DNA from: Candidatus Cloacimonadales bacterium
GTDB taxonomy: Bacteria; Cloacimonadota; Cloacimonadia; G963667145
NCBI GenBank assembly: GCA_965140615.1
Contig: OZ223280.1
Coordinates: forward strand, 1,268,077-1,332,076
DNA length: 64,000 nt
Direction of reading: 5' to 3'
Of this stretch, positions 110 to 46,741 are shown piece after piece; within the stretch, counting starts at the first letter, position 1; each line of letters opens with the position of its first letter. Under the pieces are notes generated by a model. The model made no database searches. It had not been told where the DNA came from and saw only the letters and a list, made by a program, of their open reading frames with translations. The position numbers and the translations under genes are program-made.

Positions 110-124
110 TGAAGTTGTAATTTA
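110..124. repeat. Left copy of the 15-bp target-site duplication (TGAAGTTGTAATTTA) for IS copy A
   Basis: Identical 15-mer lies immediately outside both IS ends; its right copy is at 1346-1360. Confidence 0.75.
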
Positions 125-1345
125 TGGAAACTCCACACTAAAAGTATCCACCCCAAGTTAGTGATTTGTAATTGGCTGGTTTATGATAAAATGGAAAAGT
201 TAATTAGAAAAATGGAGAAATAGTCTGTAAAAAAAATGGTCAAATCAGCCGTGAGAGCTGTAATTTGACCATTATGAATAAATATATAGACAATCTGAAA
301 ATTATGAGTAGAAAAGACAAGAAATTTTATCGGAAAAATTTGGTGAAATTTGCAAATGAAACATCTATTTCCGATGCAGCTAGAGAATTTGAAACCACTA
401 GAAAAACTGTGCGAAAGTGGGTCAAAGCCTATAAAGAAAAGGGCGAGGATGGTCTGGTTAATAAATCTCGAAAAGAGCAAAATTTCCCAAATCGCTTAAA
501 ATCTGAGATAATAGAGGAAATAGTAGTTTGTCGCAAAAAGGCAAAAAATCGCTGGGGAGCTAGGCGAATTATTGACCATTTACAGTTAAATTGTTCAGCT
601 TCAACTGTTCATAAAAAGCTCTGTGATGCTGGTTTGGTAAAGAAAAAGAAACGGAAATATCAGCAACGCAAAGATTTAAGTGAAATGCGAGCTAGGGCAA
701 AACCTTTTGAAAAAATCCAAGTGGATATTAAGTATTTGACCGATATGCCAGAATTGTTTGAGGGGATTAAGTACAAAAATTATCCTCGCTATCAAATCAC
801 TGCTAGAGACTACAAAACTGGCATGCAATTTATCGGTTATTGCTATGAGAAAACAGCCGTAAATGCAGGGATTTATATCGATTTTTTGTCTAAAAGATTA
901 AAGAGTTGTGGTGTTGATCTTTCCAAAGTTACTTTTCAGACCGACAATGGCTCAGAGTTTGTGAGTCCGAAGAAAAAGGGTATGAGCTTTTTTCAAAAAA
1001 GTGTGCAAATAAATGGTGCTAATCATTCGCTTATCCCTAAAGGTTCGCCTACTTTTAATTCGGATGTTGAGAGTGCTCATCGGCTGGTAGAGGATGAGTT
1101 TTATCTGATTGATGAATTTGATGATTGCAACGATTTTGTGCGTAAAGCACACAGTTATACGCTGTATTTTAACCATTTAAGAGGAAACAGAGGGCGAAAA
1201 GGTAAGACTCCGAAGCAAATTTTGCGGGAAAATTCTAGGAAGCCCAATTTTAATGTTTTGAACATTAGCCCAATAATCACAGATTATTATTTAAAAGATA
1301 TAGAAAAAATAAATAAGGGTGGATACTTTTACTGTGTACCGCCCA
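125..1345 (+). mobile_element. IS element copy A, about 1221 bp with a single DDE transposase ORF (IS481-like by organisation). Imperfect terminal inverted repeats: left TGGAAACTCCACACTAAAAGTATCCACCCC, right (reverse-complemented) GGGCGGTACACAGTAAAAGTATCCACCC. Flanked by a perfect 15-bp direct repeat.
   Basis: Three near-identical copies in the window share the same ends (…GGAGTTTCCA / GTGTACCGCCCA) and diverge immediately outside them. Copy A is flanked by TGAAGTTGTAATTTA at 110-124 and at 1346-1360. Confidence 0.8.
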
Positions 1346-1356
1346 TGAAGTTGTAA
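265..1356 (+). CDS. DDE transposase with an N-terminal HTH and an rve/integrase core (IS481-like). The ORF has no stop codon inside the IS and terminates in flanking DNA.
   Basis: 363-aa ORF with D (QVDIKY), D (QTDNGSEF) and E (ESAHRLVEDEF) catalytic spacing. The C-termini of the three copies diverge after ...YFYCVPP, exactly at the IS boundary. Confidence 0.8.
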   Translation: MTIMNKYIDNLKIMSRKDKKFYRKNLVKFANETSISDAAREFETTRKTVRKWVKAYKEKGEDGLVNKSRKEQNFPNRLKSEIIEEIVVCRKKAKNRWGARRIIDHLQLNCSASTVHKKLCDAGLVKKKKRKYQQRKDLSEMRARAKPFEKIQVDIKYLTDMPELFEGIKYKNYPRYQITARDYKTGMQFIGYCYEKTAVNAGIYIDFLSKRLKSCGVDLSKVTFQTDNGSEFVSPKKKGMSFFQKSVQINGANHSLIPKGSPTFNSDVESAHRLVEDEFYLIDEFDDCNDFVRKAHSYTLYFNHLRGNRGRKGKTPKQILRENSRKPNFNVLNISPIITDYYLKDIEKINKGGYFYCVPPMKL

Positions 1357-1360
1357 TTTA
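1346..1360. repeat. Right copy of the 15-bp target-site duplication for IS copy A
   Basis: TGAAGTTGTAATTTA, identical to 110-124. Confidence 0.75.
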
Positions 1361-1433
1361 AGGGTTGACAACAAACAGGCAATCAAAACATTAGCTCTAT
1401 TAAAATGAAATAGTAGAAACAGGAGACTAGCAG

Positions 1434-2511: not shown

Positions 2512-4140
2512 ATGAAAAAAAGAATGATGTTATTTTGGTTGATGGCTTTGAGTGCTCTTATGTTTTCTTGTTTTGACTCATCTACCAGTAGTTCAGACAG
2601 CAGTTCAGATTCTGACGATGGTTCTGGGAGTACAGAAAAGATTTCGGTAACTTTGTCGGCTCCAGCGAACGGTGCGAAAGACCAGATGTTGAGTGTGGGA
2701 TTATCTTGGAGTGGTGATGCTACTAGCTATGATTTGTATGTAGGGAGCTCATCTGAAAGTATGGATTTAAAGAAAGCAGATATTATTGGTACGAGCTATA
2801 CTTTGTCTGGGTTGGAGGTTAGCACTAATTACTGTTGGAAGTTGGTGGCTAAGAAAAGTGGATGTGAAGATGTGACTAGCGAAGTCTGGAGTTTCACTAC
2901 TGGGAATTATGGAGTGAGTTTGGCATCTCCAGAAGCAGGTGGAAAAGTATATCAAAAAGAGGTAGAGTTAACTTGGAGTGGTAATGCTGATAGTTATGAT
3001 CTTTATATAGGAACGACTGCTGAAAATATGGTTTCAAAGCAGGGTTGGTCAACCAACAAGAGTTACACATATACGCCAGATTATGGCACTTATTATTGGA
3101 AAATTGTCGGTAAATTTGGGACTAAGATTATAGAAACAGCTGTTAATAGCTTTACGACTGTTGAGCTAACTAGAGCGGAGCTTGATGTTTTAGTTGCTTC
3201 TGGTGTAGATCTTTCTAAAAATGTGGATGTTTCTGGTGTTACCGATATGAGCAATCTTTTTAAGGATAGAGCAACTTTTAATGATGATATTAGTGGTTGG
3301 GATGTGAGTAATGTTACTAATATGTCAGGTATGTTTAATGGAGCAACTGCTTTTAATCAAGAGATTGGTGGTTGGACTGTGAGTAATGTTACTAATATGT
3401 CAGGTATGTTTAATGGAGCAACTGCTTTTAATCAAGAGATTGGTGGTTGGACTGTGAGTAATGTTACTGATATGTCAAATATGTTTAAGCTAGCTTCTTC
3501 TTTTGATAAACCTATAGGAGGCTGGGATGTGAGTAAAGTTACTAATATGTTAGGAATGTTTATGAATGCTTCTTCTTTTGATAAGCCTATAGGAGGCTGG
3601 GATGTGAGTAAAGTTACTAATATGCTAGGTTTATTTAGTGGGGCGACAAACTTTAATCAAGATATTAGCGGATGGATTACTGAAAGTGCTACAACAATGG
3701 ACTGCATGTTTGCAAATACAGAAAATTTTAATGCGGATATTAGTGGTTGGAATGTGAGTAAAGTTGAGCAGTTTGGTTATATGTTCATTAATGCAAAATC
3801 TTTTAATAGAGATCTTAATAATTGGGATGTTTCTAGTGCTAAAGGAATGGGACGTATGTTTAGTAATGCAGTAAAATTTAATTGTGATTTGGATAAATGG
3901 AATGACAAAGTGGGTAATGTTACCTATATGCGTGAGATGTTTTCTGGTGCGACAATTTTTAATGGAAACATCTCTGGTTGGAAAACTGAAAATAATAAAA
4001 GCATGACAGGAATGTTTGAAAATGCTACTAGTTTTAATCAAGACCTTAGTGGCTGGGATGTAAGCAGCTTAGAAGAATATGATGACTATGATAAAGGTAT
4101 TGAAAGCACATGGACATTGGCTAGGCCGAATTTTAATTAA
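2512..4140 (+). CDS. BspA-family / DUF285 repeat surface lipoprotein. It has a signal peptide with a lipobox-like ..LMFSC, a Ser/Asp-rich linker, two ~85-aa duplicated domains and about 11 copies of the ~25-aa GWDVSxVTNMxxMF repeat.
   Basis: Repeats [24 protein letters not shown] and similar. The N-terminal [24 protein letters not shown] is followed by [15 protein letters not shown]. Confidence 0.75.
3304..3453 (+). repeat. Two perfect tandem 75-bp repeats inside the BspA-like gene; a further near-identical 75-bp pair lies at ~3494-3640
   Basis: 3304-3378 and 3379-3453 are identical 75-mers, each encoding 25 aa in frame. Confidence 0.85.
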
Positions 4141-6337: not shown

Positions 6338-6366
6338 TTGACACTTGGTCTAATAGGTAAATATTG
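6338..6366 (+). promoter_or_regulatory. Candidate sigma70-like promoter for engB: TTGACA, 17-bp spacer, ATATTG
   Basis: TTGACA at 6338-6343; an AT-rich -10-like hexamer 17 bp downstream. Confidence 0.3.
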
Positions 6367-10353: not shown

Positions 10354-12708
10354 ATGAAAAGATTTATTAAGATTTTTATTATAATACTTTTTTCGCAAGG
10401 TATCTTGTGGTCGGCTGCTCAAAATGCACCTATCAACACCAAATTTGATAGCGAAGCGAAAAGGACAGCTTGGTGGAAAGGGCTGGAGTATCAGTGGAAG
10501 CTGACTTTCAATGAGCTACTGGGTAATGGGAAAACTGTCAAAAAGCCTAAAGATAGTTTTTTGCAAGGGCTACTAAAAAGAACTACGCTTTTTTTGTATG
10601 GGTATGGACTTACCAACATTAGTGGATTGTCTGAACTCGATCATCTGGAGAATATAAATTGTTCTTACAATAAAATCTCTAGCATAAAAGGTATAGAAAA
10701 TCTGGTAAACCTAAAGGAATTAAAGCTAAGCGACAATCGTATAACTTCTTTGCAACGCCTAAAAAACCTCAAAAAGCTGGAATATCTGCGAGCCGATTTT
10801 AACGACCTGCACGACCTTAAAGGGCTGGAGAATTTGCTTAATCTTAGGCGAGTGTATGTGAAGCGGAACTTTATCTCGTCGATCGAGCCTTTGGCGAATA
10901 AGCCTCTTTTGGAGGAGCTATCCATTAGCTACAACAAGATTGTCTCTTTGCAGCCGCTTCGCACTAGCACCAAGCTGAAGATTTTGCTGGTGCAACACAA
11001 TCTGCTGACGGACATCAAAGGGCTGGAAAGGCTGGTGAATTTGGAGCGAGTCTTCATCTTTAAGAACCGATTAACAAGCCTAGAGGGCGTGCAAAACCTC
11101 AAGAAGCTGAAAGTTTTTATGTTCTCGCAGGAGAGTGAAATTTTGCCTGAGGCAGAAAAGGAGAAAGTAAGGAAATTTTTTGCTCGAAAAAAGGCTTTTA
11201 GGTTTGGAATTGGTGGTGGATTGTTGGTGTTGTTTTGTTTAGCATTTTTTGGCTACATTTTGATAAACATTGCCAAGAGAGTAAAAAGACGCAAAGAACG
11301 AAGGAAAGAGTTTTTGCGGTTGCGGAAACTTTTTGAAAACCAAAAGGCGTCGTTTTTCGATAATAAAAAGCGACTTTACCAGTGGTGGAACAACTTGGAT
11401 GAGCAGTGGAAACGGATTTTTAATGTGCAACTGGACAACGGAAGCTCTTTGTTCTTTCCCCGAGAAGATGAGCTACGGATGCTGGTAAATAGTCGCTTTT
11501 TTAGGATGCGAGGCGACAATCTGACCAATCTTGGGGGACTGAGGAACTGCACAAAGTTGGAGCGACTTAGCTTTTACAACGAGGGTCCAAGATTTTTGAA
11601 GCTGTTTTCCGACTTAAACTTTTTAGCAAGATTTTCTGTCTTGAAGAAGATCGAGTTTTCCACAAGAGATGTGCAAAAAATCAAAAACTTTGCAAGGCTG
11701 GAAAAGATGTTCGAGATCGTAGTGCCAGCAAGCGAAATCCCTTATACTGCCAAGGGAAGTTTTATTGATGTATCTGATGATATACAAGTGCGTTATAAGT
11801 ATCCTATTGTGGCTATCGGCAACTTTGAGGGGTTGCACCTTGGGCATGCCAAGATACTCAATCGCCTCTACGCTAGAGCTGAGGACACAGGAGGAGAGGC
11901 TTTGGTGCTGACCTATAGAGTGCATACTCGGGAGCATTTCCTCAAGAAGGGGAACAAGCCAATAGCACCTTATATGATTTTGGAGAAAGATCACAAAGAG
12001 AACTTGCTATTTCATAAGTTTGGGGTGCACTCCATCTTGTATCTGGATTTTGAGAATCAGGTGGTAAACCTTACAGCCGAAGAGTTTTTTGAAGAGATTT
12101 TGATACGGAAGTTGCATATCAGGGAGATAGTTTGCGGACACGACACCAGATTTGGCAAAGATAGGAAGGGCGACTACAAGCTGTTGACAGAGCTGGCAAA
12201 GCCCTATGGGATACACATCCGCTTGGTAGATCCACTGATGATGGGTGATGAGATAGTATGTAGCAGATTGATCCGCCAGAAGATAGAAAATGGCGACATC
12301 AACGGGATTAAGCGGTATCTCTCGCGGAATTATTCGATAGTGGGTACTGTAGAGGCAGGGCGGAAGATTGGAGGGAAGCTGGGGTTTCCCACTCTGAACC
12401 TAGAGCCCAAGCAGGCATACAAGCTTTACCCAGCACAAGGGGTGTACATAACGCACACCAAGATAGGCAACAAGGGTTACTACGGTTTGACCAACATAGG
12501 GTTTGCCCCGACGGTGAGGCAAGATATTAAAAAGAAAACAATAGAAAATTACTTGCACAAATTTAGTGGTTCGCTTTATGGACAAGAGGTGAAAATCGTG
12601 TTTTTGCAGTATCTGCGGGGCGAGAAGAAGTTTGCCTCCAAAAGTGATTTGGTGCAACAGTTGAAAGAAGATTTGAAAATGCTAAAGCAATATATAAGGG
12701 TGCATTAG
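10354..12708 (+). CDS. ribF: Fusion protein: signal peptide, leucine-rich repeats, one TM helix, a second LRR-like module, and a C-terminal riboflavin kinase / FAD synthetase (RibF)
   Basis: N-terminal LRR units (LxxLxLxxNxIxxI). TM segment FGIGGGLLVLFCLAFFGYILINI followed by KRVKRRKERRKE. The C-terminal ~310 aa (YPIVAIGNFEGLHLGHAKIL ... GDINGIKRYL...PTLNLEP) is a canonical RibF. No stop codon occurs between the modules. Confidence 0.7.
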   Translation: MKRFIKIFIIILFSQGILWSAAQNAPINTKFDSEAKRTAWWKGLEYQWKLTFNELLGNGKTVKKPKDSFLQGLLKRTTLFLYGYGLTNISGLSELDHLENINCSYNKISSIKGIENLVNLKELKLSDNRITSLQRLKNLKKLEYLRADFNDLHDLKGLENLLNLRRVYVKRNFISSIEPLANKPLLEELSISYNKIVSLQPLRTSTKLKILLVQHNLLTDIKGLERLVNLERVFIFKNRLTSLEGVQNLKKLKVFMFSQESEILPEAEKEKVRKFFARKKAFRFGIGGGLLVLFCLAFFGYILINIAKRVKRRKERRKEFLRLRKLFENQKASFFDNKKRLYQWWNNLDEQWKRIFNVQLDNGSSLFFPREDELRMLVNSRFFRMRGDNLTNLGGLRNCTKLERLSFYNEGPRFLKLFSDLNFLARFSVLKKIEFSTRDVQKIKNFARLEKMFEIVVPASEIPYTAKGSFIDVSDDIQVRYKYPIVAIGNFEGLHLGHAKILNRLYARAEDTGGEALVLTYRVHTREHFLKKGNKPIAPYMILEKDHKENLLFHKFGVHSILYLDFENQVVNLTAEEFFEEILIRKLHIREIVCGHDTRFGKDRKGDYKLLTELAKPYGIHIRLVDPLMMGDEIVCSRLIRQKIENGDINGIKRYLSRNYSIVGTVEAGRKIGGKLGFPTLNLEPKQAYKLYPAQGVYITHTKIGNKGYYGLTNIGFAPTVRQDIKKKTIENYLHKFSGSLYGQEVKIVFLQYLRGEKKFASKSDLVQQLKEDLKMLKQYIRVH

Positions 12709-35569: not shown

Positions 35570-36223
35570 TTAAATATCTTTTATAAAATTTTGCGGGTTT
35601 AGTTTGTTTTCATTTTGGATAATCTCGTAATGCAGATGCGGGTTGGTGCTGTAGCCAGAGTCTCCGAGTTTGCCGATGGCTTGTCCTTTTTTCACGAAAG
35701 AGTTTTTGGTGACCAAGATGGAATCTAGGTGAGCGTAAACGGTTTTGAAGCCGTTGAGGTGATTTAGGGTAATGGTTTTGCCGAAATAGTTGTCTTGGCT
35801 GGTTTGTTCCACCACTCCCGAGGCTGTTGCCAAGATAGGCGATGTTTTCTTGCCAGCGAAGTCTGTGGCAGGGTGTTTTTGGCTGTAGATTTTGCTTACT
35901 TTGTAAGGTTTTGCCACGGGCAATAAATCTGGGTAGAAGTTCTGAGGGTCGCTGAGGTTTTCGCCTTTGTTTTCTTCTATTTTTGGCTTTTGAGCCAAAT
36001 AATCTTCTAAGGCTAAGCGAAGTTTTTCTAGTTTGAGGTTGTTGTTTAGGTCTTTGTCTTGGAGTAGGTCTTGCCTGTAAGAGTCCAACTTTTTGGTCAG
36101 GGAGTTTACTTTTTGCTCGTTTTGCTTTAGTTTGTTTATCAGGTGGTAGTTGATGTAAAAGCTAGCTAGCAAAAAAGTGAGAAGCAGGATGAGAAGTATG
36201 ATGCCAAAATGCTTATTTTTCAT
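35570..36223 (-). CDS. M23-family metallopeptidase with an N-terminal TM anchor and coiled coil
   Basis: HxxxD and NPHLHYEI motifs. Confidence 0.8.
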   Translation of the reverse strand: MKNKHFGIILLILLLTFLLASFYINYHLINKLKQNEQKVNSLTKKLDSYRQDLLQDKDLNNNLKLEKLRLALEDYLAQKPKIEENKGENLSDPQNFYPDLLPVAKPYKVSKIYSQKHPATDFAGKKTSPILATASGVVEQTSQDNYFGKTITLNHLNGFKTVYAHLDSILVTKNSFVKKGQAIGKLGDSGYSTNPHLHYEIIQNENKLNPQNFIKDI

Positions 36224-37073
36224 CTGTGAGAAGTTTCAGGAGTTCTTCTTTTTGAGATTTTGATTGATACGAAAAGACGACCTTGCCCTTGCTATTGCTT
36301 CCTTGGACTTTCACGGAGACATTGTACTTATCTTTTAAGAGGTGCTCCAGCTGGGAGAAGTCTAGCTGAGCTTTTTTATTTTTAACGATTGTGGCAGAAG
36401 ATTTGACCAAAGACTCGCTGGCTCGCACAGATAGCCCTTTTTGGGCGATAGTGGCAGCGATAGCCTCTCGTTGCTCTGGCTCGGCTTGCATTATCACCTT
36501 GGCGTGTCCCATGCTTATCTTTTTTTGTAAGAGGAGCTCTCTTATGGAGTTCTCTAGGCTCAAAAGGCGAAGAAAGTTGGAGATAGTAGTACGGTCTTTG
36601 CCCATAGCGGTGGCTATCTCGCTGTGAGTGTAGTTGAACTCTTCTCGTAGCCTTTGGTAACTGGCAGCCTCTTCGATGGGGTTCAAGTTCTCTCGCTGAA
36701 CATTTTCGATGATAGCTAGCTGGAGCATCTGTTGTCTGGTAGCCTCACGGATGACTACGGGTACTTTTTCCAGATTTGCCAGTTTTGCCGCTTGTAGTCG
36801 TCGCTCGCCGGCTATCAGCTCGTAGCGACCTTCCTCTTGTTGAGTAACTATCAGTGGCTGGATGATGCCGTTCTCGATGATGGAGTCTCTGAGTTCTTCC
36901 AGTTTCTCTTGGTCGAAGTGCCGTCTGGGCTGATAGCGGTTGGGGAAGATAGATTTGGGGCTTAGCTCGTTTATGGGGCTAGCTTCTTGGTTGTCAGTCT
37001 CTTGGGATGTCGGTTTGAAGTCAACAGGCTTAATAAGGGCTTCCAAGCCACGACCCAGTTTTTTTTTGGTCAT
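36213..37073 (-). CDS. parB: Chromosome partitioning protein ParB
   Basis: GERRLQAAKLANLEKVPVVIRE, a ParB box / HTH. Confidence 0.9.
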   Translation of the reverse strand: MTKKKLGRGLEALIKPVDFKPTSQETDNQEASPINELSPKSIFPNRYQPRRHFDQEKLEELRDSIIENGIIQPLIVTQQEEGRYELIAGERRLQAAKLANLEKVPVVIREATRQQMLQLAIIENVQRENLNPIEEAASYQRLREEFNYTHSEIATAMGKDRTTISNFLRLLSLENSIRELLLQKKISMGHAKVIMQAEPEQREAIAATIAQKGLSVRASESLVKSSATIVKNKKAQLDFSQLEHLLKDKYNVSVKVQGSNSKGKVVFSYQSKSQKEELLKLLTDEK

Positions 37074-37825
37074 CGTGCTACCACCTCTTTGACTAGGTTT
37101 AGGTAATCTTGAGCTCCGCGAGAGGTGATGGCGTAATCAAAGATGGTTTGACCAAAGCTAGGAGACTCGCTGAGTTTGACATTTCTGGCGATGTAAGTTT
37201 TGAAAAGCTTATCGCCAAAGTAGTTTTTGACATCCTCTTCCACTTGCTGACTGAGGTTGAGCCTCTTGTCGTACATAGTCAGGAGCACGCCTAGTATCTC
37301 TAAGGTAGGGTTAAGGCTGTTTTGGATCAGCTTGATGGTGTTCAGTAGCTGGCTGACACCTTCCAAGGCGTAGTACTCGCATTGGATAGGCAATAGCACA
37401 TGGGTGCTGGCAGTCAGGGCGTTGATGGTCAGTAGTCCCAGCGATGGTGGGCAGTCGATGATGATGTACTCGTAATCTTCCAAGATGGGTTGTAAGGCGT
37501 TTTTTAGCTTTTGTTCACGGGCGTACTCTTTTACTAGCTCTATTTCCGCTCCAGTTAGGTTGATGTCCGCAGGCACTACATCCAGTTTTTTGTAGTTGGA
37601 TTTGACGATGCAAGACTTGATGCTTTTTTCCCCGATGAGCATTTTGTAAACTTGGCTATTGACTTTGCTTTTGTTTATGCCGATGCCCGATGTGGAGTTG
37701 CCTTGCGGGTCTAAATCTATGAGCAGGGTTTTCTTTTCGTAAACTCCCAAAGCTGCTGACAAGTTCACAGAGGTGGTGGTTTTGCCCACTCCACCTTTTT
37801 GATTGACGACTGATACTACTTTCAT
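37070..37825 (-). CDS. parA: Chromosome partitioning ATPase ParA/Soj
   Basis: KGGVGKTTTSVNLSAALG, a deviant Walker A motif. Confidence 0.9.
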   Translation of the reverse strand: MKVVSVVNQKGGVGKTTTSVNLSAALGVYEKKTLLIDLDPQGNSTSGIGINKSKVNSQVYKMLIGEKSIKSCIVKSNYKKLDVVPADINLTGAEIELVKEYAREQKLKNALQPILEDYEYIIIDCPPSLGLLTINALTASTHVLLPIQCEYYALEGVSQLLNTIKLIQNSLNPTLEILGVLLTMYDKRLNLSQQVEEDVKNYFGDKLFKTYIARNVKLSESPSFGQTIFDYAITSRGAQDYLNLVKEVVAR

Positions 37826-37875
37826 AACCGTCCTTTCTATTTTTTTGGTTAATATTTTCTTGGTTCAGTTACAAG

Positions 37876-38969
37876 TCAAGATGTTTTTGTCGTCTTTCTG
37901 GGCGGTACACAGTAAAAGTATCCACCCTTATTTATTTTTTCTATATCTTTTAAATAATAATCTGTGATTATTGGGCTAATGTTCAAAACATTAAAATTGG
38001 GCTTCCTAGAATTTTCCCGCAAAATTTGCTTCGGAGTCTTACCTTTTCGCCCTCTGTTTCCTCTAAAATGATTAAAATACAGCGTATAACTGTGTGCTTT
38101 ACGCACAAAATCGTTGCAATCATCAAATTCATCAATCAGATAAAACTCGTCCTCTACCAGCCGATGAGCACTTTCAACATCAGAATTAAAAGTGGGCGAA
38201 CCTTTGGGGATAAGCGAATGATTAGCACCATTTATTTGCACACTTTTTTGAAAAAAGCTCAAACCCTTTTTCTTGGGACTCACAAACTCTGAGCCATTGT
38301 CGGTTTGAAAAGTAACTTTGGAAAGATCAACACCACAACTCTTTAATCTTTTAGACAAAAAATCGATATAAATCCCTGCATTTACGGCTGTTTTCTCATA
38401 GCAATAACCGATGAATTGCATACCAGTTTTGTAGTCTCTAGCAGTGATTTGATAGCGAGGATAATTTTTGTACTTAATCCCCTCAAACAATTCTGGCATA
38501 TCGGTCAAATACTTAATATCCACTTGGATTTTTTCAAAAGGTTTTGCCCTAGCTCGCATTTCACTTAAATCTTTGCGTTGCTGATATTTCCGTTTCTTTT
38601 TCTTTACCAAACCAGCATCACAGAGCTTTTTATGAACAGTCGAAGCTGAACAATTTAACTGCAAATGGTCAATAATTCGCCTAGCTCCCCAGCGATTTTT
38701 TGCCTTTTTGCGACAAACTACTATTTCCTCTATTATCTCAGATTTTAAGCGATTTGGGAAATTTTGCTTTTTTCGAGATTTATTAACCAGACCATCCTCG
38801 CCCTTTTCTTTATAGGCTTTGACCCACTTTCGCACAGTTTTTCTAGTGGTCTCAAATTCTCTAGCTGCAGCGGAAATAGATGTTTCATTTGCAAATTTCA
38901 CCAAATTTTTCCGATAAAATTTCTTGTCTTTTCTACTCATAATTTTCAAATTGTCTATATATTTTTTCA
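37876..38969 (-). CDS. DDE transposase (copy B); ORF terminates in flanking DNA ~50 bp upstream of parA
   Basis: MKKYIDNLKIMS... nearly identical to copies A and C. The C-terminal tail ...VPPRKTTKTS is flank-encoded. Confidence 0.75.
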
Positions 38970-38975
38970 TAATGG
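37899..38975 (-). mobile_element. IS copy B (older copy), body from the right end to its own start codon. Its left end, 40198-40355, has been displaced by insertion of copy C.
   Basis: Right end GTGTACCGCCCA (reverse complement at 37899-37910). The body is co-linear with copies A and C and is interrupted immediately upstream of its ATG. Confidence 0.7.
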
Positions 38976-40057
38976 TTGGGCGGTACACAGTAAAAGTATC
39001 CACCCTTATTTATTTTTTCTATATCTTTTAAATAATAATCTGTGATTATTGGGCTAATGTTCAAAACATTAAAATTGGGCTTCCTAGAATTTTCCCGCAA
39101 AATTTGCTTCGGAGTCTTACCTTTTCGCCCTCTGTTTCCTCTAAAATGATTAAAATACAGCGTATAACTGTGTGCTTTACGCACAAAATCGTTGCAATCA
39201 TCAAATTCATCAATCAGATAAAACTCGTCCTCTACCAGCCGATGAGCACTTTCAACATCAGAATTAAAAGTGGGCGAACCTTTGGGGATAAGCGAATGAT
39301 TAGCACCATTTATTTGCACACTTTTTTGAAAAAAGCTCAAACCCTTTTTCTTGGGACTCACAAACTCTGAGCCATTGTCGGTCTGAAAAGTAACTTTGGA
39401 AAGATCAACACCACAACTCTTTAATCTTTTAGACAAAAAATCGATATAAATCCCTGCATTTACGGATGTTTTCTCATAGCAATAACCGATAAATTGCATG
39501 CCAGTTTTGTAGTCTCTAGCAGTGATTTGATAGCGAGGATAATTTTTGTACTTAATCCCCTCAAACAACTCTGGCATATCGGTCAAATACTTAATATCCA
39601 CTTGGATTTTTTCAAAAGGTTTTGCCCTAGCTCGCATTTCACTTAAATCTTTGCGTTGCTGATATTTCCGTTTCTTTTTCTTTACCAAACCAGCATCACA
39701 GAGCTTTTTATGAACAGTCGAAGCTGAACAATTTAACTGCAAATGGTCAATAATTCGCCTAGCTCCCCAGCGGTTTTTTGCCTTTTTGCGACAAACTACT
39801 ATTTCCTCTATTATCTCAGATTTCAAGCGATTTGGGAAATTTTGCTCTTTTCGAGATTTATTAACCAGACCATCCTCGCCCTTTTCTTTATAGGCTTTGA
39901 CCCACTTTCGCACAGTTTTTCTAGTGGTCTCAAATTCTCTAGCTGCAGCGGAAATAGATGTTTCATTTGCAAATTTCACCAAATTTTTCCGATAAAATTT
40001 CTTGTCTTTTCTACTCATAATTTTCAAATTGTCTATATATTTGTTCATAATGGTCAA
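38933..40057 (-). CDS. DDE transposase (copy C); ORF reads through the IS end into copy B sequence
   Basis: MTIMNKYIDNL... 374 aa. The C-terminal tail ...VPPNHYEKIYRQFENYE is encoded by copy B DNA. Confidence 0.8.
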   Translation of the reverse strand: MTIMNKYIDNLKIMSRKDKKFYRKNLVKFANETSISAAAREFETTRKTVRKWVKAYKEKGEDGLVNKSRKEQNFPNRLKSEIIEEIVVCRKKAKNRWGARRIIDHLQLNCSASTVHKKLCDAGLVKKKKRKYQQRKDLSEMRARAKPFEKIQVDIKYLTDMPELFEGIKYKNYPRYQITARDYKTGMQFIGYCYEKTSVNAGIYIDFLSKRLKSCGVDLSKVTFQTDNGSEFVSPKKKGLSFFQKSVQINGANHSLIPKGSPTFNSDVESAHRLVEDEFYLIDEFDDCNDFVRKAHSYTLYFNHFRGNRGRKGKTPKQILRENSRKPNFNVLNISPIITDYYLKDIEKINKGGYFYCVPPNHYEKIYRQFENYE

Positions 40058-40197
40058 ATTACAGCTCTCACGGCTGATTTGACCATTTTTTTTACAGACT
40101 ATTTCTCCATTTTTCTAATTAACTTTTCCATTTTATCATAAACCAGCCAATTACAAATCACTAACTTGGGGTGGATACTTTTAGTGTGGAGTTTCCA
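38976..40197 (-). mobile_element. IS copy C (complete, 1222 bp) nested in copy B, flanked by a 15-bp near-perfect direct repeat
   Basis: Same ends as copy A. The flanks are ACCATTATGAAAAAA (38961-38975, reverse complement) and ACCATTATGAATAAA (40198-40212, reverse complement), with one mismatch. Confidence 0.75.
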
Positions 40198-40355
40198 TTT
40201 ATTCATAATGGTCAAATTACAGCTCTCACGGCTGATTTGACCATTTTTTTTACAGACTATTTCTCCATTTTTCTAATTAACTTTTCCATTTTATCATAAA
40301 CCAGCCAATTACAAATCACTAACTTTGGGTGGATACTTTTAGTGTGGAGTTTCCA
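40198..40355 (-). repeat. Displaced left end of IS copy B: left IR, leader and the first 3 codons
   Basis: 158 bp matching the left-end leader of copies A and C (…TGGAAACTCCACAC…GACCATTATGAATAAA). Confidence 0.7.
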
Positions 40356-40478
40356 GAGTTGACAAATTTTTCGATTGACAGACAAACCAGAGGCAAGAGG
40401 AATAGTCAAATGTAGATAAATTGTGGTAGGGTGTGAATATTTTTTTTAAAAACAAGAGGTAAGTAATAAATTTAAAAG

Positions 40479-42905
40479 ATGAACAAACAAAAGAAAATAG
40501 GAATTTTACTGAGTGTTTTTGGTAGTCTGGAGGTGGTGATAAACTCCTTGCTGGCTACCTCTTCTTTTGGGTTTAGGCAAGATTTGGTTTCTGGTCTGGG
40601 GTTGTCTTTTCCCACTTTTTGGGTTGTCTGCTCTTTGTTGCCTGTGGCTGGTCTTTTGGTTGCTTCTGGAAAAGTCTGGACGAAGGAGAAGAGCGAGTTG
40701 TGCTCGCTAGCTGTAGCTCAAGAGCCTGTGATGCCGGAGCATCTTATTAGTAGGGGTAAGGAACTCAAGGTTTTGCAAAAGAGGCTGAAGCGAAAAAATA
40801 TCGTGCTGATAGGTGGAGAAAAAAGTAGCGGAAAAAGTTTGCTTGCGGCAGAGTATTACGACAAGATGAAAGGCTACTACAAAGAGCGTTACTGGATTGG
40901 AGCTCAAAAAAGTATCGAAGAGTCGTTTTTGCGGTTTGGTGAGGAGCAGATTTTAGTGGGTAATGAGCAAAAACTTCCTGAAAAAAAAAGATTAGAGCGG
41001 ATTTTTGATAAGTTTGCAAAGCTTGAAAATTCTTTGCTGGTGGTGGACAATCTGAACGATGCTAGGCAAATGAAGATTTGCCTTTCTTGGTTAGAGAGGT
41101 GCAATAATTTGCAGGTGCTGATAACTACTCGCCTTCCTGAATTTCCAAATGTGGAGTATTTTCAGCTAGAGAGCCCTAAGTTGCGAGCTTGTCTTAAGCT
41201 TTTCAAAAAGCATTGTTCCAAGTGTAAGCCGAAAAAGATGCTGAAAGAGGTCGTTGAAAACTTAGGTAACAATGTTTTTTTAGTGCAGTTACTTGCCAAA
41301 AATTTGCAACACAATAGGAAACGAGACTCTGAATATACCTTATCCAATATGGTGGAAGATTTGCACAACGGTTTGCTGACTCTGGGCAAAAGTAAGAAAG
41401 TTGCGACAAAGAACAACGCTGGAAGTGATAAGCTCCAAGTTCGGCAGTTAGAGGAGCTGGTGATGGCTGTTTATGATGGCATGGATTTGGCAGAGCAAGA
41501 AAAGACATTACTTTCAGTTTTTGTTGTCTTGCCTAGCGAAAATATCGCGTGGCAATTTTTGGAAAGAAGTTACGGTGATGAGGGAGTGGAGAAGCATCTT
41601 ATGAGTTTGACAAAAAAAGGGCTTCTCAATTGGGACGAAAAAAGAAAGATTGTGTCAGTCTGCTCGCTAGTGGCAGAGGCAGTCGCTCATTTGCATAGAG
41701 ATAGGACTTTCGACGATTGCAAACCGATGTTGGAGCAGATTAGCCAGCAACTTTTTGGTAAAGAGATACTATCGGCTAAAAAGGCGAGATATAGCCAGCT
41801 TTTGCTTAGGTACACTTCGAGCGTAATGAAAGAGTTAGATGGACAAGGCAAAGAGATTGCTGTTTTGCATGGAGCTTTGGGGAACTATTACAAAAATGTG
41901 GGCGATTTGTCGTCTTCTTTACCTTCATACGGTAAAGCTTGTTTGATTTTTGAAGATTTGTGCAAGGGAAGTACCTCTAACCAAGACCTCAAGTACAATC
42001 TGGCAGTCTCTTATTATAAATTGGGAGCGATACACAAAGAATTGGAAAATGCGGTTAAAGCTCTGAAGTGTTTTGAGCTTAACACCAAACTCAACAAAGA
42101 GTTGTACGACGCTTATCCGCAAAATAGTTCTGTGCAAAGCAATTTGGCTTACTCTTTTGATTTACTGGGATTGATGCACAAGGAGTTGGATAATATGCAA
42201 AAGGCTCAAGTTTGCTACGGGAATTGTTTGAAATTGGTCGAGGAACTTTGTAGAACATTACCGCAGGAAAGTTCTTTCAAGAAGAGGTTGATAAAATCGT
42301 ATGAAAATCTGGGTGATATTCACAAAACAAGAAAAAATTTTAATCAAGCTTTGGAATGTTTTGAAAAGGGGACGAGGCAGGCTTTAAAGGTTTGTGAAGA
42401 GTTTGCAAAAGATGTCTCTGCCAAAAAAGATTTGGTGCAGTTATTTTCCAAGTTGGGTTTGTTGCAGATGAGCTTAAATCGGGTTGATCTGGCAGTTAGG
42501 TGCTTTAGCAGAGAGAACGCGTTGTATCGGCAGATGCATAAAAAAAACCCCAAAGAGCTTTTTTGGAAGCAAGGCTTAGCTGTTTCTTATGAGAAGTTGG
42601 GCACCATGCAGTCCAAATTGGGCGAACTGGACAAGGCACAAAAGAGCTTCGAGCAAGAAGTGTCTTTGTTTACCCAGCTTTGTAAATCTTTCCCACAAGA
42701 TGCGAACCTCGAAAACGGACTTGCTGTTTCTTATGCCAAATTTGCGACATTTTATCGAGCAAAACGCAAAGACACTCGACAAGCGCGGCACTATTTCGGC
42801 AAAGCTAAGTCGTTGTGGGGCAATCTGGTGGGACAATTTCCACAGAATCAGTTGTTTAGCAAGTTCTTGAGCAATGTGGAGAGGGATTTGCACAGGCTTA
42901 GGTAG
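40479..42905 (+). CDS. Membrane-anchored STAND NTPase: two N-terminal TM helices, an NB-ARC-type P-loop NTPase domain and C-terminal TPR repeats
   Basis: TM helices IGILLSVFGSLEVVINSLLATS and LSFPTFWVVCSLLPVAGLLVASG. Walker A VLIGGEKSSGKS. Walker B SLLVVDNLND. RNBS-B-like LQVLITTR. About 10 TPR-like units (..LAVSYEKLGTMQSKLGELDKAQKSFEQ..). Confidence 0.65.
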   Translation: MNKQKKIGILLSVFGSLEVVINSLLATSSFGFRQDLVSGLGLSFPTFWVVCSLLPVAGLLVASGKVWTKEKSELCSLAVAQEPVMPEHLISRGKELKVLQKRLKRKNIVLIGGEKSSGKSLLAAEYYDKMKGYYKERYWIGAQKSIEESFLRFGEEQILVGNEQKLPEKKRLERIFDKFAKLENSLLVVDNLNDARQMKICLSWLERCNNLQVLITTRLPEFPNVEYFQLESPKLRACLKLFKKHCSKCKPKKMLKEVVENLGNNVFLVQLLAKNLQHNRKRDSEYTLSNMVEDLHNGLLTLGKSKKVATKNNAGSDKLQVRQLEELVMAVYDGMDLAEQEKTLLSVFVVLPSENIAWQFLERSYGDEGVEKHLMSLTKKGLLNWDEKRKIVSVCSLVAEAVAHLHRDRTFDDCKPMLEQISQQLFGKEILSAKKARYSQLLLRYTSSVMKELDGQGKEIAVLHGALGNYYKNVGDLSSSLPSYGKACLIFEDLCKGSTSNQDLKYNLAVSYYKLGAIHKELENAVKALKCFELNTKLNKELYDAYPQNSSVQSNLAYSFDLLGLMHKELDNMQKAQVCYGNCLKLVEELCRTLPQESSFKKRLIKSYENLGDIHKTRKNFNQALECFEKGTRQALKVCEEFAKDVSAKKDLVQLFSKLGLLQMSLNRVDLAVRCFSRENALYRQMHKKNPKELFWKQGLAVSYEKLGTMQSKLGELDKAQKSFEQEVSLFTQLCKSFPQDANLENGLAVSYAKFATFYRAKRKDTRQARHYFGKAKSLWGNLVGQFPQNQLFSKFLSNVERDLHRLR

Positions 42906-46665: not shown

Positions 46666-46741
46666 GGGGCATTAGCTCAGTTGGTAGAGCACTACACTGG
46701 CAGTGTAGGGGTCAGCGGTTCAAGTCCGCTATGCTCCACCA
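46666..46741 (+). tRNA. tRNA-Ala, anticodon GGC, with encoded CCA
   Basis: Cloverleaf: acceptor stem GGGGCAT/ATGCTCC with the G3·U70 alanine identity pair; D-arm AGCTCAGTTGGTAGAGC; anticodon loop CTGGCAG; T-arm GGTTCAAGTCC; 3' ACCA. Confidence 0.9.

Follow-up and report, generated by a model that had tools for sequence, protein, structure and literature searches.

An insertion sequence (IS) that lies directly before an essential ribosomal operon raises the question of whether it arrived there by accident or by choice of target. The locus belongs to a stretch of 64,000 nucleotides (nt) from Candidatus Cloacimonadales bacterium; this whole stretch is referred to as the window. One copy of the IS ends 88 bp upstream of the ATG of rplU (1434) and in the same orientation as the gene, a distance that a first-pass annotation of the sequence had measured correctly. 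The genes rplU (1434 to 1751) and rpmA (1755 to 2003), which span 1434 to 2003 of the plus strand, were identified from their open reading frames (ORFs), from L21 homologues and from the Pfam labels of the orthologues in a related genome, L089. The element is read, with a probability of about 0.85, as a divergent IS of the IS481-like clade that cuts its target with a 15-bp stagger, has a transposase ORF without an internal stop and lands in one orientation 19 nt before the hexamer TTGAC(A/T). Its placement before rplU thus follows from target choice and is not an accident.

The element and its 15-bp target duplication

The IS is a real, recently active, multicopy element with three copies in the window, copy A on the plus strand and copies B and C on the minus strand. 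Copy A (125 to 1345) is 1221 bp long and has TGG...CCA termini, its bounds being set by the comparison of the three copies and by the duplication that flanks it. The first-pass annotation had counted the copies correctly and had not stated that copy B (38977 to 40197, minus strand, 1221 bp) is nested within copy C, at the start-codon region of the copy C transposase. Copy C is thereby divided into a left part of 158 bp (40198 to 40355, with the left end at 40355) and a right part of 1078 bp (37899 to 38976, with the right end at 37899), both on the minus strand, and removal of copy B and of one repeat restores an element of 1221 bp. The pairwise identity of the copies is 98.4 to 99.2%, with copy A 98.4% identical to both B and C. 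Their ends are identical, and divergence starts exactly at these ends, as had been claimed. The terminal inverted repeats are imperfect, about 29 bp long and bounded by TGG...CCA. In copy A, the left repeat (125 to 153, TGGAAACTCCACACTAAAAGTATCCACCC) matches the reverse complement of the right end at 24 of 32 positions, and the right repeat (1317 to 1345) doubles as the coding sequence for the conserved C-terminal peptide GGYFYCVPP. The window holds the terminal core CTAAAAGTATCCACCC six times, once at each IS end and nowhere else, where chance alone would give 0.55 occurrences. Beyond the window the copies were seen as proteins; in the 1.56-Mb genome to which the window belongs, the element is present as no fewer than 44 distinct ORF variants. 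A search of genome contigs with the transposase gave two remote matches (29 to 31% identity) and no close relative. An Rfam scan placed no RNA family near the element; its sole match was a tRNA at 46666 to 46738.

The transposase is encoded by a single ORF without a frameshift (274 to 1356 on the plus strand in copy A), which starts at the ATG at 274 while gene callers pick a TTG at 265. It combines an N-terminal helix-turn-helix (HTH) with a DDE integrase-fold core, as is characteristic of IS481. The earlier assignment to the HTH plus DDE (rve-type) elements agrees with the best profile match, the NCBIfam IS481 family (E value of 5.5e-46). The match to this profile (NF033577) covers profile positions 4 to 282 of 284 and scores 157.4 bits, which does not reach the curated cut-off of 224 bits. 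The transposase is thus a clear relative of IS481 that lies beyond the curated boundary of the family. The Pfam families HTH_32, HTH_28 and HTH_23 match above threshold and rve_3 slightly below it, and residues D151, D224 and E266 are invariant in a family alignment of 16 sequences. A structure model (pLDDT of 82.5) has its best fold matches in the IS21 transposase IstA and in retroviral integrases; the integrase-type core was confirmed by this fold search, as a sequence search of the PDB gave only a marginal HTH match to SETMAR. The closest annotated plasmid genes, at 27 to 29% identity, are labeled "IS481 family transposase." Terminal inverted repeats of IS3 and IS481 start with 5'-TGT (IS1202 preprint); the ends studied here start with TGG (TGGAAAC at one end, TGGGCGG at the other) and have a 3' terminus of CCCA, so that the terminal TG/CA is kept and the TGT start is not. 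The ISNCY_2 profile of the IS1202 family (NF033594) scores 38 bits against a cut-off of 250 and matches the HTH region only, and profile searches gave no match of the transposase to Mutator, IS256 or IS30 families.

The flanks of copy A form the perfect 15-bp direct repeat that the first-pass annotation had described, with TGAAGTTGTAATTTA at 110 to 124 and again at 1346 to 1360 and nowhere else in the window. Copy B has ACCATTATGAATAAA as its left duplication (40198 to 40212, minus strand) and ACCATTATGAAAAAA, a 14/15 match, as its right one (38962 to 38976, minus strand). The sequence ACCATTATGAATAAA is single copy in copies A and B, which serve as empty-site controls for the insertion of B. 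For the insertion of copy A, empty sites were found in two related genomes that lack the IS, L089 and L090, which hold its 15-mer once, followed by AGGG and TTGACA. A relative of the element with 72% identity, in a second complete genome, is flanked by perfect 15-bp duplications at four loci (L004, L005, L086 and L088), and the complete genomes together give seven duplication events, six of them perfect and one with a 14/15 match. Among metagenome contigs, L013 and L019 have perfect duplications of 15 bp, L018 has one of 14 bp and L027 has one of 15 bp (or up to 18). Overall, the duplication is 15 bp long in at least nine events and 14 bp in one, and the target is cut with a 15-bp stagger. Only a minority of the short-read metagenome contigs show a duplication. 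The others are tentatively attributed to chimeric assembly across a multicopy repeat and were not counted against the 15-bp rule, since short-read contigs that cross such repeats are often chimeric. Copy C also has no target duplication (flank-to-flank identity of 7/15). Recombination between two inverted copies fails on paper as a cause; the candidate explanation that would account for it is a deletion between copies in direct orientation.

The hexamer beyond the right end

Among 34 independent sites, 21 have the right end of the IS followed by 15 nt, by 4 more nt and then by TTGAC(A/T), which puts the hexamer at offset 19. TTGAC stands at offset 18 in three further right flanks and at offset 20 in one, so that offsets 18 to 20 account for 25/34. 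With a background of 0.18% per position, the binomial P value is about 1e-49 to 2e-49. The motif occurs in 1 of 28 left flanks, and the difference between right and left is significant by Fisher's test (P of 1e-8). Insertion is therefore oriented and site selective, with the right end 19 nt upstream of TTGAC(A/T). In copy A, TTGACA (1365 to 1370, plus strand) follows the IS end after the 15-bp duplication and AGGG, and L089 and L090 have it conserved at their empty sites. Copy B is followed by TAGACA (38952 to 38957, minus strand), a 5/6 match to TTGACA that comes after TATA beyond the right duplication. TTGACT (37874 to 37879, minus strand) lies 19 nt past the right end of copy C and 54 bp before parA (37070 to 37825, minus strand, with ParA/ParB identified). 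The only left flank that bears the motif is that of copy C as well, with TTGACA on the plus strand (40375 to 40380) pointing outward at a distance of 19 nt, upstream of a TPR gene at 40479. A symmetric (palindromic) target was considered and rejected, the mirror motif being limited to this 1 of 28 left flanks. Nine of the 34 sites have no motif, three of which have a near-cognate hexamer at offset 19 (TAGACA, TTGATT and TTTACA), and L086 is motif-less yet has a perfect 15-bp duplication.

The hexamer also bears on the end of the transposase. The ORF is open through the last base of the IS in all three copies, as the first-pass annotation had observed, and continues into the tails MKL, NHYEKIYRQFENYE and RKTTKTS of copies A, B and C; in copy A the final 11 nt of the ORF lie in the flank and the stop is a TAA at 1354 to 1356. 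A search for an internal stop in the close clade found no intact copy or homologue with one. Every full-length variant in the genome of the window, among the 15 listed of 44, ends in GGYFYCVPP plus a differing tail, and the open end is also present in the 70% relative (where the peptide is GGYFYCIPP) and in homologues down to about 45% identity. The final IS base is the first position of a codon, which places the TGA of TTGACA in frame. With the hexamer at offset 19, the tail has at most seven flank-encoded residues, or fewer if the 19 nt hold a stop of their own, as they do in copy A; in copy C it is the TGA of TTGACT that stops RKTTKTS. Tails of exactly seven residues occur at 12 of the 34 sites and tails of up to seven at 26, while none has six or eight, and in the seven-residue tails of database homologues the final residue is always one that NNT can encode. 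Thus the tail does differ from insertion to insertion, as had been proposed, and is not arbitrary, being limited to seven residues by the TGA of the hexamer. The last 9 of 357 modeled residues are predicted to be disordered (pLDDT below 50), and a transposase without its own stop may be tolerable when the tail is this short and is joined to a disordered end.

The hexamer lies outside the duplication, and the full target is therefore rebuilt beside the element. The rebuilt target would be open to repeat insertion, giving tandems in which two IS copies are separated by 15 bp, and such arrays are predicted at reused targets. Protein tails point the same way: the pairs KIKEK+LETPH and KIKEK*, and IYFHF+LETPH and IYFHFQS*, are consistent with tandems, LETPH being the translated left end of the IS placed exactly 15 nt past a right end.

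Promoters as probable targets and the alternatives

Before rplU, TTGACA is the presumed target determinant and the presumed -35 box for transcription of rplU-rpmA. More generally, the sequence context suggests that the targeted hexamers act as -35 boxes in sigma-70-type promoters of the host. Coding sequence makes up 91% of the window, and TTGACA is enriched intergenically on the gene-sense strand, with 8 of 19 plus-strand matches in the non-coding 9%. Three genomes with differing upstream genes share a conserved region before rplU that reaches from the 15-mer across TTGACA to the ATG. The upstream 15-mer is A/T rich (at positions -8 to -5, 20 to 23 of 23 sites have A/T), and about 18 nt downstream there is a weak T-A-T-W-T-G signal. 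At copy A the best -10 candidate, CATTAG with an 18-nt spacer, is poor. A generic sigma-70 scan of positions 1 to 1500 called no promoter at the rplU hexamer, which is uninformative on promoter function. Two targets are not obvious promoters, namely the 3' end of a convergent gene at L004 and the inside of another IS at copy B.

The zone just upstream of promoters may serve the element as a safe landing site, where insertion would spare the promoter together with the 19 bp before it. At rplU, insertion has restored the 15 bp beside the hexamer, so the conserved region from the 15-mer to the ATG is unbroken. The first-pass annotation had warned of read-through from copy A into the ribosomal operon. 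Such read-through is still possible because a terminator scan of positions 1 to 1500 called none, and thus none between copy A and rplU; the concern is weaker than it was stated, as the upstream region of rplU is preserved. Target choice also explains how at least 44 ORF variants can be present in a 1.56-Mb genome beside essential operons (rplU-rpmA and parAB) that remain unbroken. Transposition itself probably proceeds by a copy-out-paste-in route, like that of IS3-type relatives.

At the right end, the transposase complex could read the hexamer itself, or recognition could be indirect, through a bound sigma factor or RNA polymerase. In the indirect route the transposase would dock on promoter-bound RNA polymerase or on region 4 of sigma-70 and would not read TTGACA; this route is tentative and somewhat less probable than its opposite. 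The targets are promoter-like in being intergenic, gene-sense, preceded by an A/T-rich 15-mer and followed by a weak -10-like signal, and the right end is next to the -35 box, the same geometry as in the unrelated TnGBS and ISLre2, for which this mechanism has been proposed (PMC3942029). However, the hexamer, with TTGAC perfect at 25/34 sites, is far better conserved than the -10 region, and the targets of L004 and copy B lie where no promoter is expected. The broader proposal that an IS481-like clade independently evolved docking onto the -35 box, possibly via sigma-70 region 4 or RNA polymerase, with a reading frame tuned so that the hexamer terminates the transposase, is speculative and judged unlikely.

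The pattern might also arise from random insertion followed by selection, if the survivors in small, gene-dense genomes were only those just upstream of promoters and so mimicked targeting. This is very improbable. It accords with the coding density of the window, with the location of all three copies between genes or within another IS and with the presence of surviving copies upstream of essential operons, none of which is disrupted. An exact spacing of 19 nt (±1) in a single orientation is nevertheless beyond what selection could set, and the same spacing is seen at L004, which is upstream of no gene, and at the near-cognate hexamer inside an IS copy. The protein tails, moreover, point to repeated insertion at the same regenerated 15-mer. 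About equally improbable is an IS481-like element that makes long duplications and does not choose its target, with an arbitrary tail and stop and an incidental place before rplU. This reading draws on a real duplication and a real open ORF, and some motif-less insertions do have long tails (L086, L020, L022 and L028, and the proteins P0129, P0130 and P0133), but it is contradicted by the excess of TTGAC at offset 19 in right over left flanks and over background and by the piling up of tails at exactly seven residues. In most copies the hexamer keeps a constant distance to the conserved right end, which would fit a TTGACA that belongs to the element, with the true right end lying further out or the IS carrying an outward promoter. 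This is practically excluded, as the intervening 15 nt vary by site and equal the left-flank duplication, and the empty sites of L089 and L090 have the 15-mer, AGGG and TTGACA without an IS.

Comparison with known systems

Oriented, site-selective insertion is thus the preferred reading, and known elements share different parts of it. The two traits reported in the first-pass annotation, the 15-bp duplication and the stop-less transposase, are uncommon and already published. Duplications of about 15 bp, whose length here stands as first reported, are recorded for "not a few" members of IS481, a family with a range of 2 to 15 bp and mostly 6 (PMC10045372), so they are not new. The IS481 subgroup with about 15 bp (ISMac4 and ISA0963-1, and the eukaryotic IS481EU) resembles the present element in its single ORF, its N-terminal HTH and DDE core and its length of about 1.2 kb. 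The present element differs from IS481 in having TGG..CCA instead of TGT..ACA ends, no internal stop, oriented insertion by TTGACA and about 40 extra C-terminal residues that reach into the right repeat. Literature searches found no report of promoter or -35 targeting by an IS481-type element. The IS1202 family, a distant relative of IS481 and IS3, makes long duplications of discrete length, 15 to 17 bp in the ISTde1 subgroup, and members of its ISAba32 subgroup are found 5 bp from XerC sites, which bind a protein, always in the same orientation. Elements of IS1202 differ in their larger size, their TGT ends and a stop of their own, and the sole fit of the present element to the ISTde1 subgroup is the duplication length.

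Stop-less transposases with flank-encoded C-termini have been published for IS1239, IS870, ISMt1, IS1547 and IS1110 (PMC13630536), so the trait stands as an uncommon observation and not as a novelty. IS1239 of Streptococcus pyogenes lacks an internal stop, and its flank-encoded C-termini are polymorphic among copies; its direct repeats measure 13 to 15 bp and its inverted repeats about 27 bp, and its copies cluster beside tRNA, rRNA and ribosomal-protein genes, which they leave uninterrupted (PMC13630536). Its open end is a lineage-specific 1-bp deletion, its tails range from 3 to 171 bp and neither a target motif nor a link to promoters has been reported for it (PMC13630536), whereas here the open end is ancestral to the whole clade and the tail is limited by the target hexamer. 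In IS870 of Agrobacterium vitis and in ISMt1, a specific target supplies the stop of the transposase (PMC13630536 citing Fournier et al. 1993). Their target is the tetranucleotide CTAG, directly at the junction, whereas here the stop is in a hexamer 19 nt away, past the 15-bp duplication.

The closest likeness in behavior is to TnGBS, ISLre2 and ISKra4, which insert in one orientation, the right inverted repeat facing the promoter, at 15 to 17 bp before the -35 box of sigma-A promoters (PMC3942029). The same account reads this promoter-edge insertion as a safe-haven strategy and proposes tethering of TnGBS by analogy with yeast Ty3 and TFIIIB (PMC3942029). In literature searches, oriented insertion right upstream of the -35 box was known only for these Mutator-like elements. 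Their transposases are Mutator/IS256-like and unrelated to the integrase/IS481 type, the distance and the duplication length differ, and the passages on their targeting describe no stop-codon borrowing (PMC3942029). The present element has the trait that marks this promoter-targeting class, oriented right-end insertion by a -35-like hexamer, and does not have a p-MULT transposase with its signature motif, so that it resembles the class in behavior only. If docking on the promoter complex were true, the element would be a bacterial counterpart of the Ty3 integrase and TFIIIB, and its insertions would chart the likely promoters of uncultured Cloacimonadota-like bacteria. The transposase would then also be a compact, protein-only DNA inserter specific for site and orientation, and a candidate to study or borrow. 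The choice by an integrase-type clade of a site 19 bp before TTGACA looks like a promoter-edge safe haven reached convergently with the Mutator-like elements.

Copies, ends and classification of the element

Copy A of the insertion sequence (IS) lies at 125-1345 on the plus strand (1221 bp). As the first-pass annotation had described, it is flanked by a perfect 15-bp direct repeat, TGAAGTTGTAATTTA, which occurs in the window exactly twice, at 110-124 and 1346-1360. A BLAST search of copy A against the window found two further copies, both on the minus strand. Copy B (40197..38977) is nested inside copy C and splits it into 40355..40198 and 38976..37899; subtraction of copy B and one repeat from copy C leaves exactly 1221 bp. 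The three copies are 98.4-99.2% identical. The flanks of copy B, ACCATTATGAATAAA and ACCATTATGAAAAAA, match at 14 of 15 positions, and copies A and B serve as empty-site controls because its target 15-mer is single-copy there. Copy C lacks a target duplication, its two flanks matching at only 7 of 15 positions. The two IS ends form imperfect inverted repeats (TGGAAACTCCACACTAAAAGTATCCACCC and TGGGCGGTACACAGTAAAAGTATCCACCC) that agree at 24 of 32 positions, and the terminal-repeat core has six matches in the window against 0.55 expected, none of them outside IS ends.

The transposase had been described as IS481-like. IS481 is indeed the best NCBIfam match (E 5.5e-46), but at 157 bits it does not reach the 224-bit cut-off; the scores for IS3 and ISNCY_2 are 77 and 38 bits. 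In Pfam, the HTH domains exceed the threshold, which rve_3 narrowly misses, and the family alignment shows D151, D224 and E266 to be invariant. Fold searches match the IS21 transposase IstA and retroviral integrases, and among annotated plasmid genes the closest, at 27-29% identity, are labelled "IS481 family transposase". The IS termini are TGG, whereas TGT is typical of IS3 and IS481 (IS1202 preprint). These comparisons place the element in an IS481-like clade that lies beyond the curated limits of the family.

The window derives from a genome of 1,555,846 bp, with whose GlyS (P0143) that of the window is 100% identical, and the host is one of a set with genomes of ~1.54-1.59 Mb. Its GlyS is only 40-46% identical to the next relatives, the named ones being labelled Cloacimonadota, a divergence that makes the host a deep sister lineage. 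G+C content ranges from 36 to 48% in 4-kb segments, and GC skew is very strong and persistent (+0.12 to +0.32) in all of them except 36001-40000 (-0.01). Downstream of rbfA, a plus-strand gene at 2512-4140 encodes a 542-residue PARCEL/BspA-like repeat surface lipoprotein. In the same place, one related genome (L089, 5016-5715) has two small ORFs only and another (L090) an EamA transporter, so that the locus, which adjoins the conserved ribosomal operon, is variable. On a 7.4-kb low-coverage contig (L091, ERZ25074352 ctg6121_13x_l) the rplU-rpmA-rbfA-eamA block occurs two times, in inverted orientation; this is either a structural variant of the population concerned or an artefact of assembly. 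The 784-residue plus-strand ORF at 10354-12708 joins an N-terminal region of internalin-like leucine-rich repeats (residues ~76-257) to a complete RibF riboflavin kinase/FAD synthetase (473-782), and is either an unusual fusion or an ORF that has been extended in error.

Target duplications and the position of TTGAC(A/T)

Copy A ends 88 bp upstream of rplU in the same orientation, as had been reported, and a promoter/terminator scan found no terminator-like site between them. In L089 (L21 96% identical) the region upstream of rplU has no IS and reads GAGG TGAAGTTGCAATTTA AGGG TTGACA ACAAACAGG; the arrangement is the same in L090 (L21 90% identical). The 15-mer is present once, not duplicated, in both, and this region is the empty site of copy A; the refuting case named in the first-pass annotation, a 15-mer already duplicated without the IS, is thus not what the relatives show. 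A 72.6%-identical relative of the IS is found in a third complete genome (1,539,614 bp), where the flanks of five copies were compared. Four have perfect 15-bp duplications: TTTACACCACAAATG (L004), ATAAAATTTCCTCTT (L005), GTAGACTCTCTTTCT (L086) and GAAAATATGAACTTT (L088). The fifth, L087, has no adjacent duplication. Among metagenome contigs, L013 and L019 have perfect 15-bp duplications, L018 has 14 bp and L027 has 15 bp or up to 18; most other short-read contigs have none, which is assumed to be due to chimeric assembly across the repeat.

Alignment of the right flanks reveals a recurrent order: IS end, 15 nt, 4 nt and TTGAC(A/T). Spacer and hexamer are AGGG TTGACA for copy A, CATC TTGACT for copy C, AGAC TTGACT for L004, TAGG TTGACA for L005 and TATG TTGACG for L088, and the geometry recurs in metagenome loci where transposase identity is no higher than 38-55%. 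Across 34 independent sites, TTGAC starts at offset 19 from the last IS base in 21, at offset 18 in three and at offset 20 in one (background 0.18% per position; binomial P ~2e-49). Of the remaining nine sites, three carry a near-cognate hexamer at offset 19, namely TAGACA (copy B), TTGATT (L015) and TTTACA (L087). In composition-matched left flanks read outward, the motif occurs in 1 of 28 (Fisher P 1e-8), and the right-flank excess over this control shows that insertion is site-selective and oriented. The IS very probably targets a sequence at a fixed distance from TTGAC(A/T), with a probability of 0.9 or higher. That the hexamer is part of the IS is ruled out by L089 and L090, which carry it without the IS; it belongs to the target. 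The hexamer may be read directly or be reached through tethering to sigma or RNA polymerase.

Copy C, between divergent parA and TPR genes, is the sole element whose outward left flank shows 19 nt followed by TTGACA (40375-40380); a second TTGACA lies near its left end at 40359-40364. The left TTGACA and the missing duplication could stem from deletion between two direct copies, from occasional reverse-orientation insertion or from chance. At L087 (1342-2700, ERZ21831251 ctg13038c) the left-flank 15-mer CTCCCTTTATTTTCA is found again 57 nt beyond the right end, followed there by ACAT and TTGACA, and the 57-nt filler has TAAA and TTTACA at offset 19. The arrangement suggests that a single promoter underwent a compound or a repeated event.

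The transposase reading frame and its tails

The single transposase ORF starts at ATG 274 (or TTG 265) and in copies A, B and C runs through the last IS base, so that the tails MKL, NHYEKIYRQFENYE and RKTTKTS are encoded by the flanks; the absence of a stop and the differing tails had both been noted at first pass. The transposase cluster of this genome has 44 distinct members, and every full-length one among the 15 listed ends in KGGYFYCVPP plus a different tail. All members of the 70% cluster end in GGYFYCIPP plus a tail, and homologues down to ~45% identity likewise have a conserved C-terminus, a tail and no internal stop. The right inverted repeat encodes this conserved peptide, and it is probably the DNA site that accounts for its conservation. 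An AlphaFold model of 357 residues (pLDDT 82.5) gives the last 9 a pLDDT below 50; extra residues on so floppy an end should matter little. Two proteins from the window's genome, P0123 and P0128, begin with the translated left inverted repeat (WKLHTKSIHPKLAICNWL) fused directly to VNKSRKEQNF, which suggests copies that have lost ~400 bp internally and are read from the upstream flank.

The first-pass annotation held that each copy borrows a stop from its flank. The last IS base is codon position 1, and this base, 19 nt and the first T of the hexamer make seven codons, so that the TGA of TTGACA is read next. Because of this in-frame TGA, tails are exactly seven residues long in 12 of 34 cases and never six or eight. 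Shorter tails (14 of 34) end at a chance stop inside the 19 nt, as does MKL in copy A, and longer ones are confined to sites that lack the motif or have it 1 nt out of place. Seven-residue tails of database proteins all have a final residue encodable by NNT, since the T of the hexamer closes codon seven. Random borrowing is contradicted by this pattern; judged from reading frames, the stop is supplied by the recognised target.

An internal stop, which the listed full-length members and close homologues lack as predicted, does occur in a more distant relative (L043, 106-1346; 38% identical). It has a 17-bp duplication (ATTTCAATAAAAAATAT), and no TTGACA lies nearby. This single example suggests that the open ORF, the 15-bp duplication and hexamer targeting define a clade, within which the open ORF and hexamer targeting may have arisen together.

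Promoter reading and comparison with known elements

TTGACA is the consensus -35 hexamer, and it is likely, though less so than the targeting itself, that the targeted hexamers are promoter -35 elements. Of 19 plus-strand TTGACA sites in the window, 8 are in the 9% that is non-coding, upstream of genes; the duplicated 15 bp is A/T-rich; and the rplU upstream region is kept from the 15-mer onward in three genomes with different upstream neighbours. Against this reading, a generic promoter scan made no call at the rplU hexamer, the L004 target coincides with a convergent gene's 3' end, and that of copy B is inside another IS. Some 23 insertion-site flanks, together with window positions 6338, 25003 and 46600, show a weak T-A-T-(A/T)-T-G ~18 nt after TTGACA (for example TATATG, TAATTG or TATTGG, rather than TATAAT). 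This signal counts in favour of the promoter reading and is a hint that these Cloacimonadota-like bacteria have a -10 consensus of their own.

With the duplication rebuilt beside the hexamer, the putative promoter would keep its native 19 upstream bp, and the target would survive insertion, since the 15 bp is regenerated next to the hexamer. Tandem re-insertion at the rebuilt target is indicated by paired protein tails, KIKEK-LETPH with KIKEK-stop and IYFHF-LETPH with IYFHFQS-stop, in which LETPH corresponds to translation of a left IS end that lies exactly 15 nt past a right end.

The long duplication and the stop-less ORF, first described as extreme and uncommon respectively, are both real and both have precedent. 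Duplications of ~15 bp occur in "not a few" IS481 members and in IS481EU (PMC10045372), and in the ISTde1 subgroup of IS1202 they measure 15-17 bp (IS1202 preprint). IS1239 (2026) has a stop-less transposase with polymorphic, flank-encoded C-termini and 13-15 bp repeats, and prefers the neighbourhood of tRNA, rRNA and ribosomal-protein genes (PMC13630536). According to the same source, the stop of IS870 and ISMt1 is supplied by a CTAG target; as here, a recognised target provides the transposase stop, but in the present element it is the TTGACA hexamer. TnGBS, ISLre2 and ISKra4, according to PMC3942029, insert in an oriented manner 15-17 bp ahead of the -35 box in sigma-A promoters, the right repeat adjoining the promoter. 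These are Mutator-like and unrelated to the IS481-like transposase of the window. No report of oriented -35 targeting by an IS481-like element was found in the literature, ISfinder lying outside the search. The new point would be convergent, oriented -35 targeting by an integrase-type clade, the other half of it being that the target hexamer doubles as the transposase stop.
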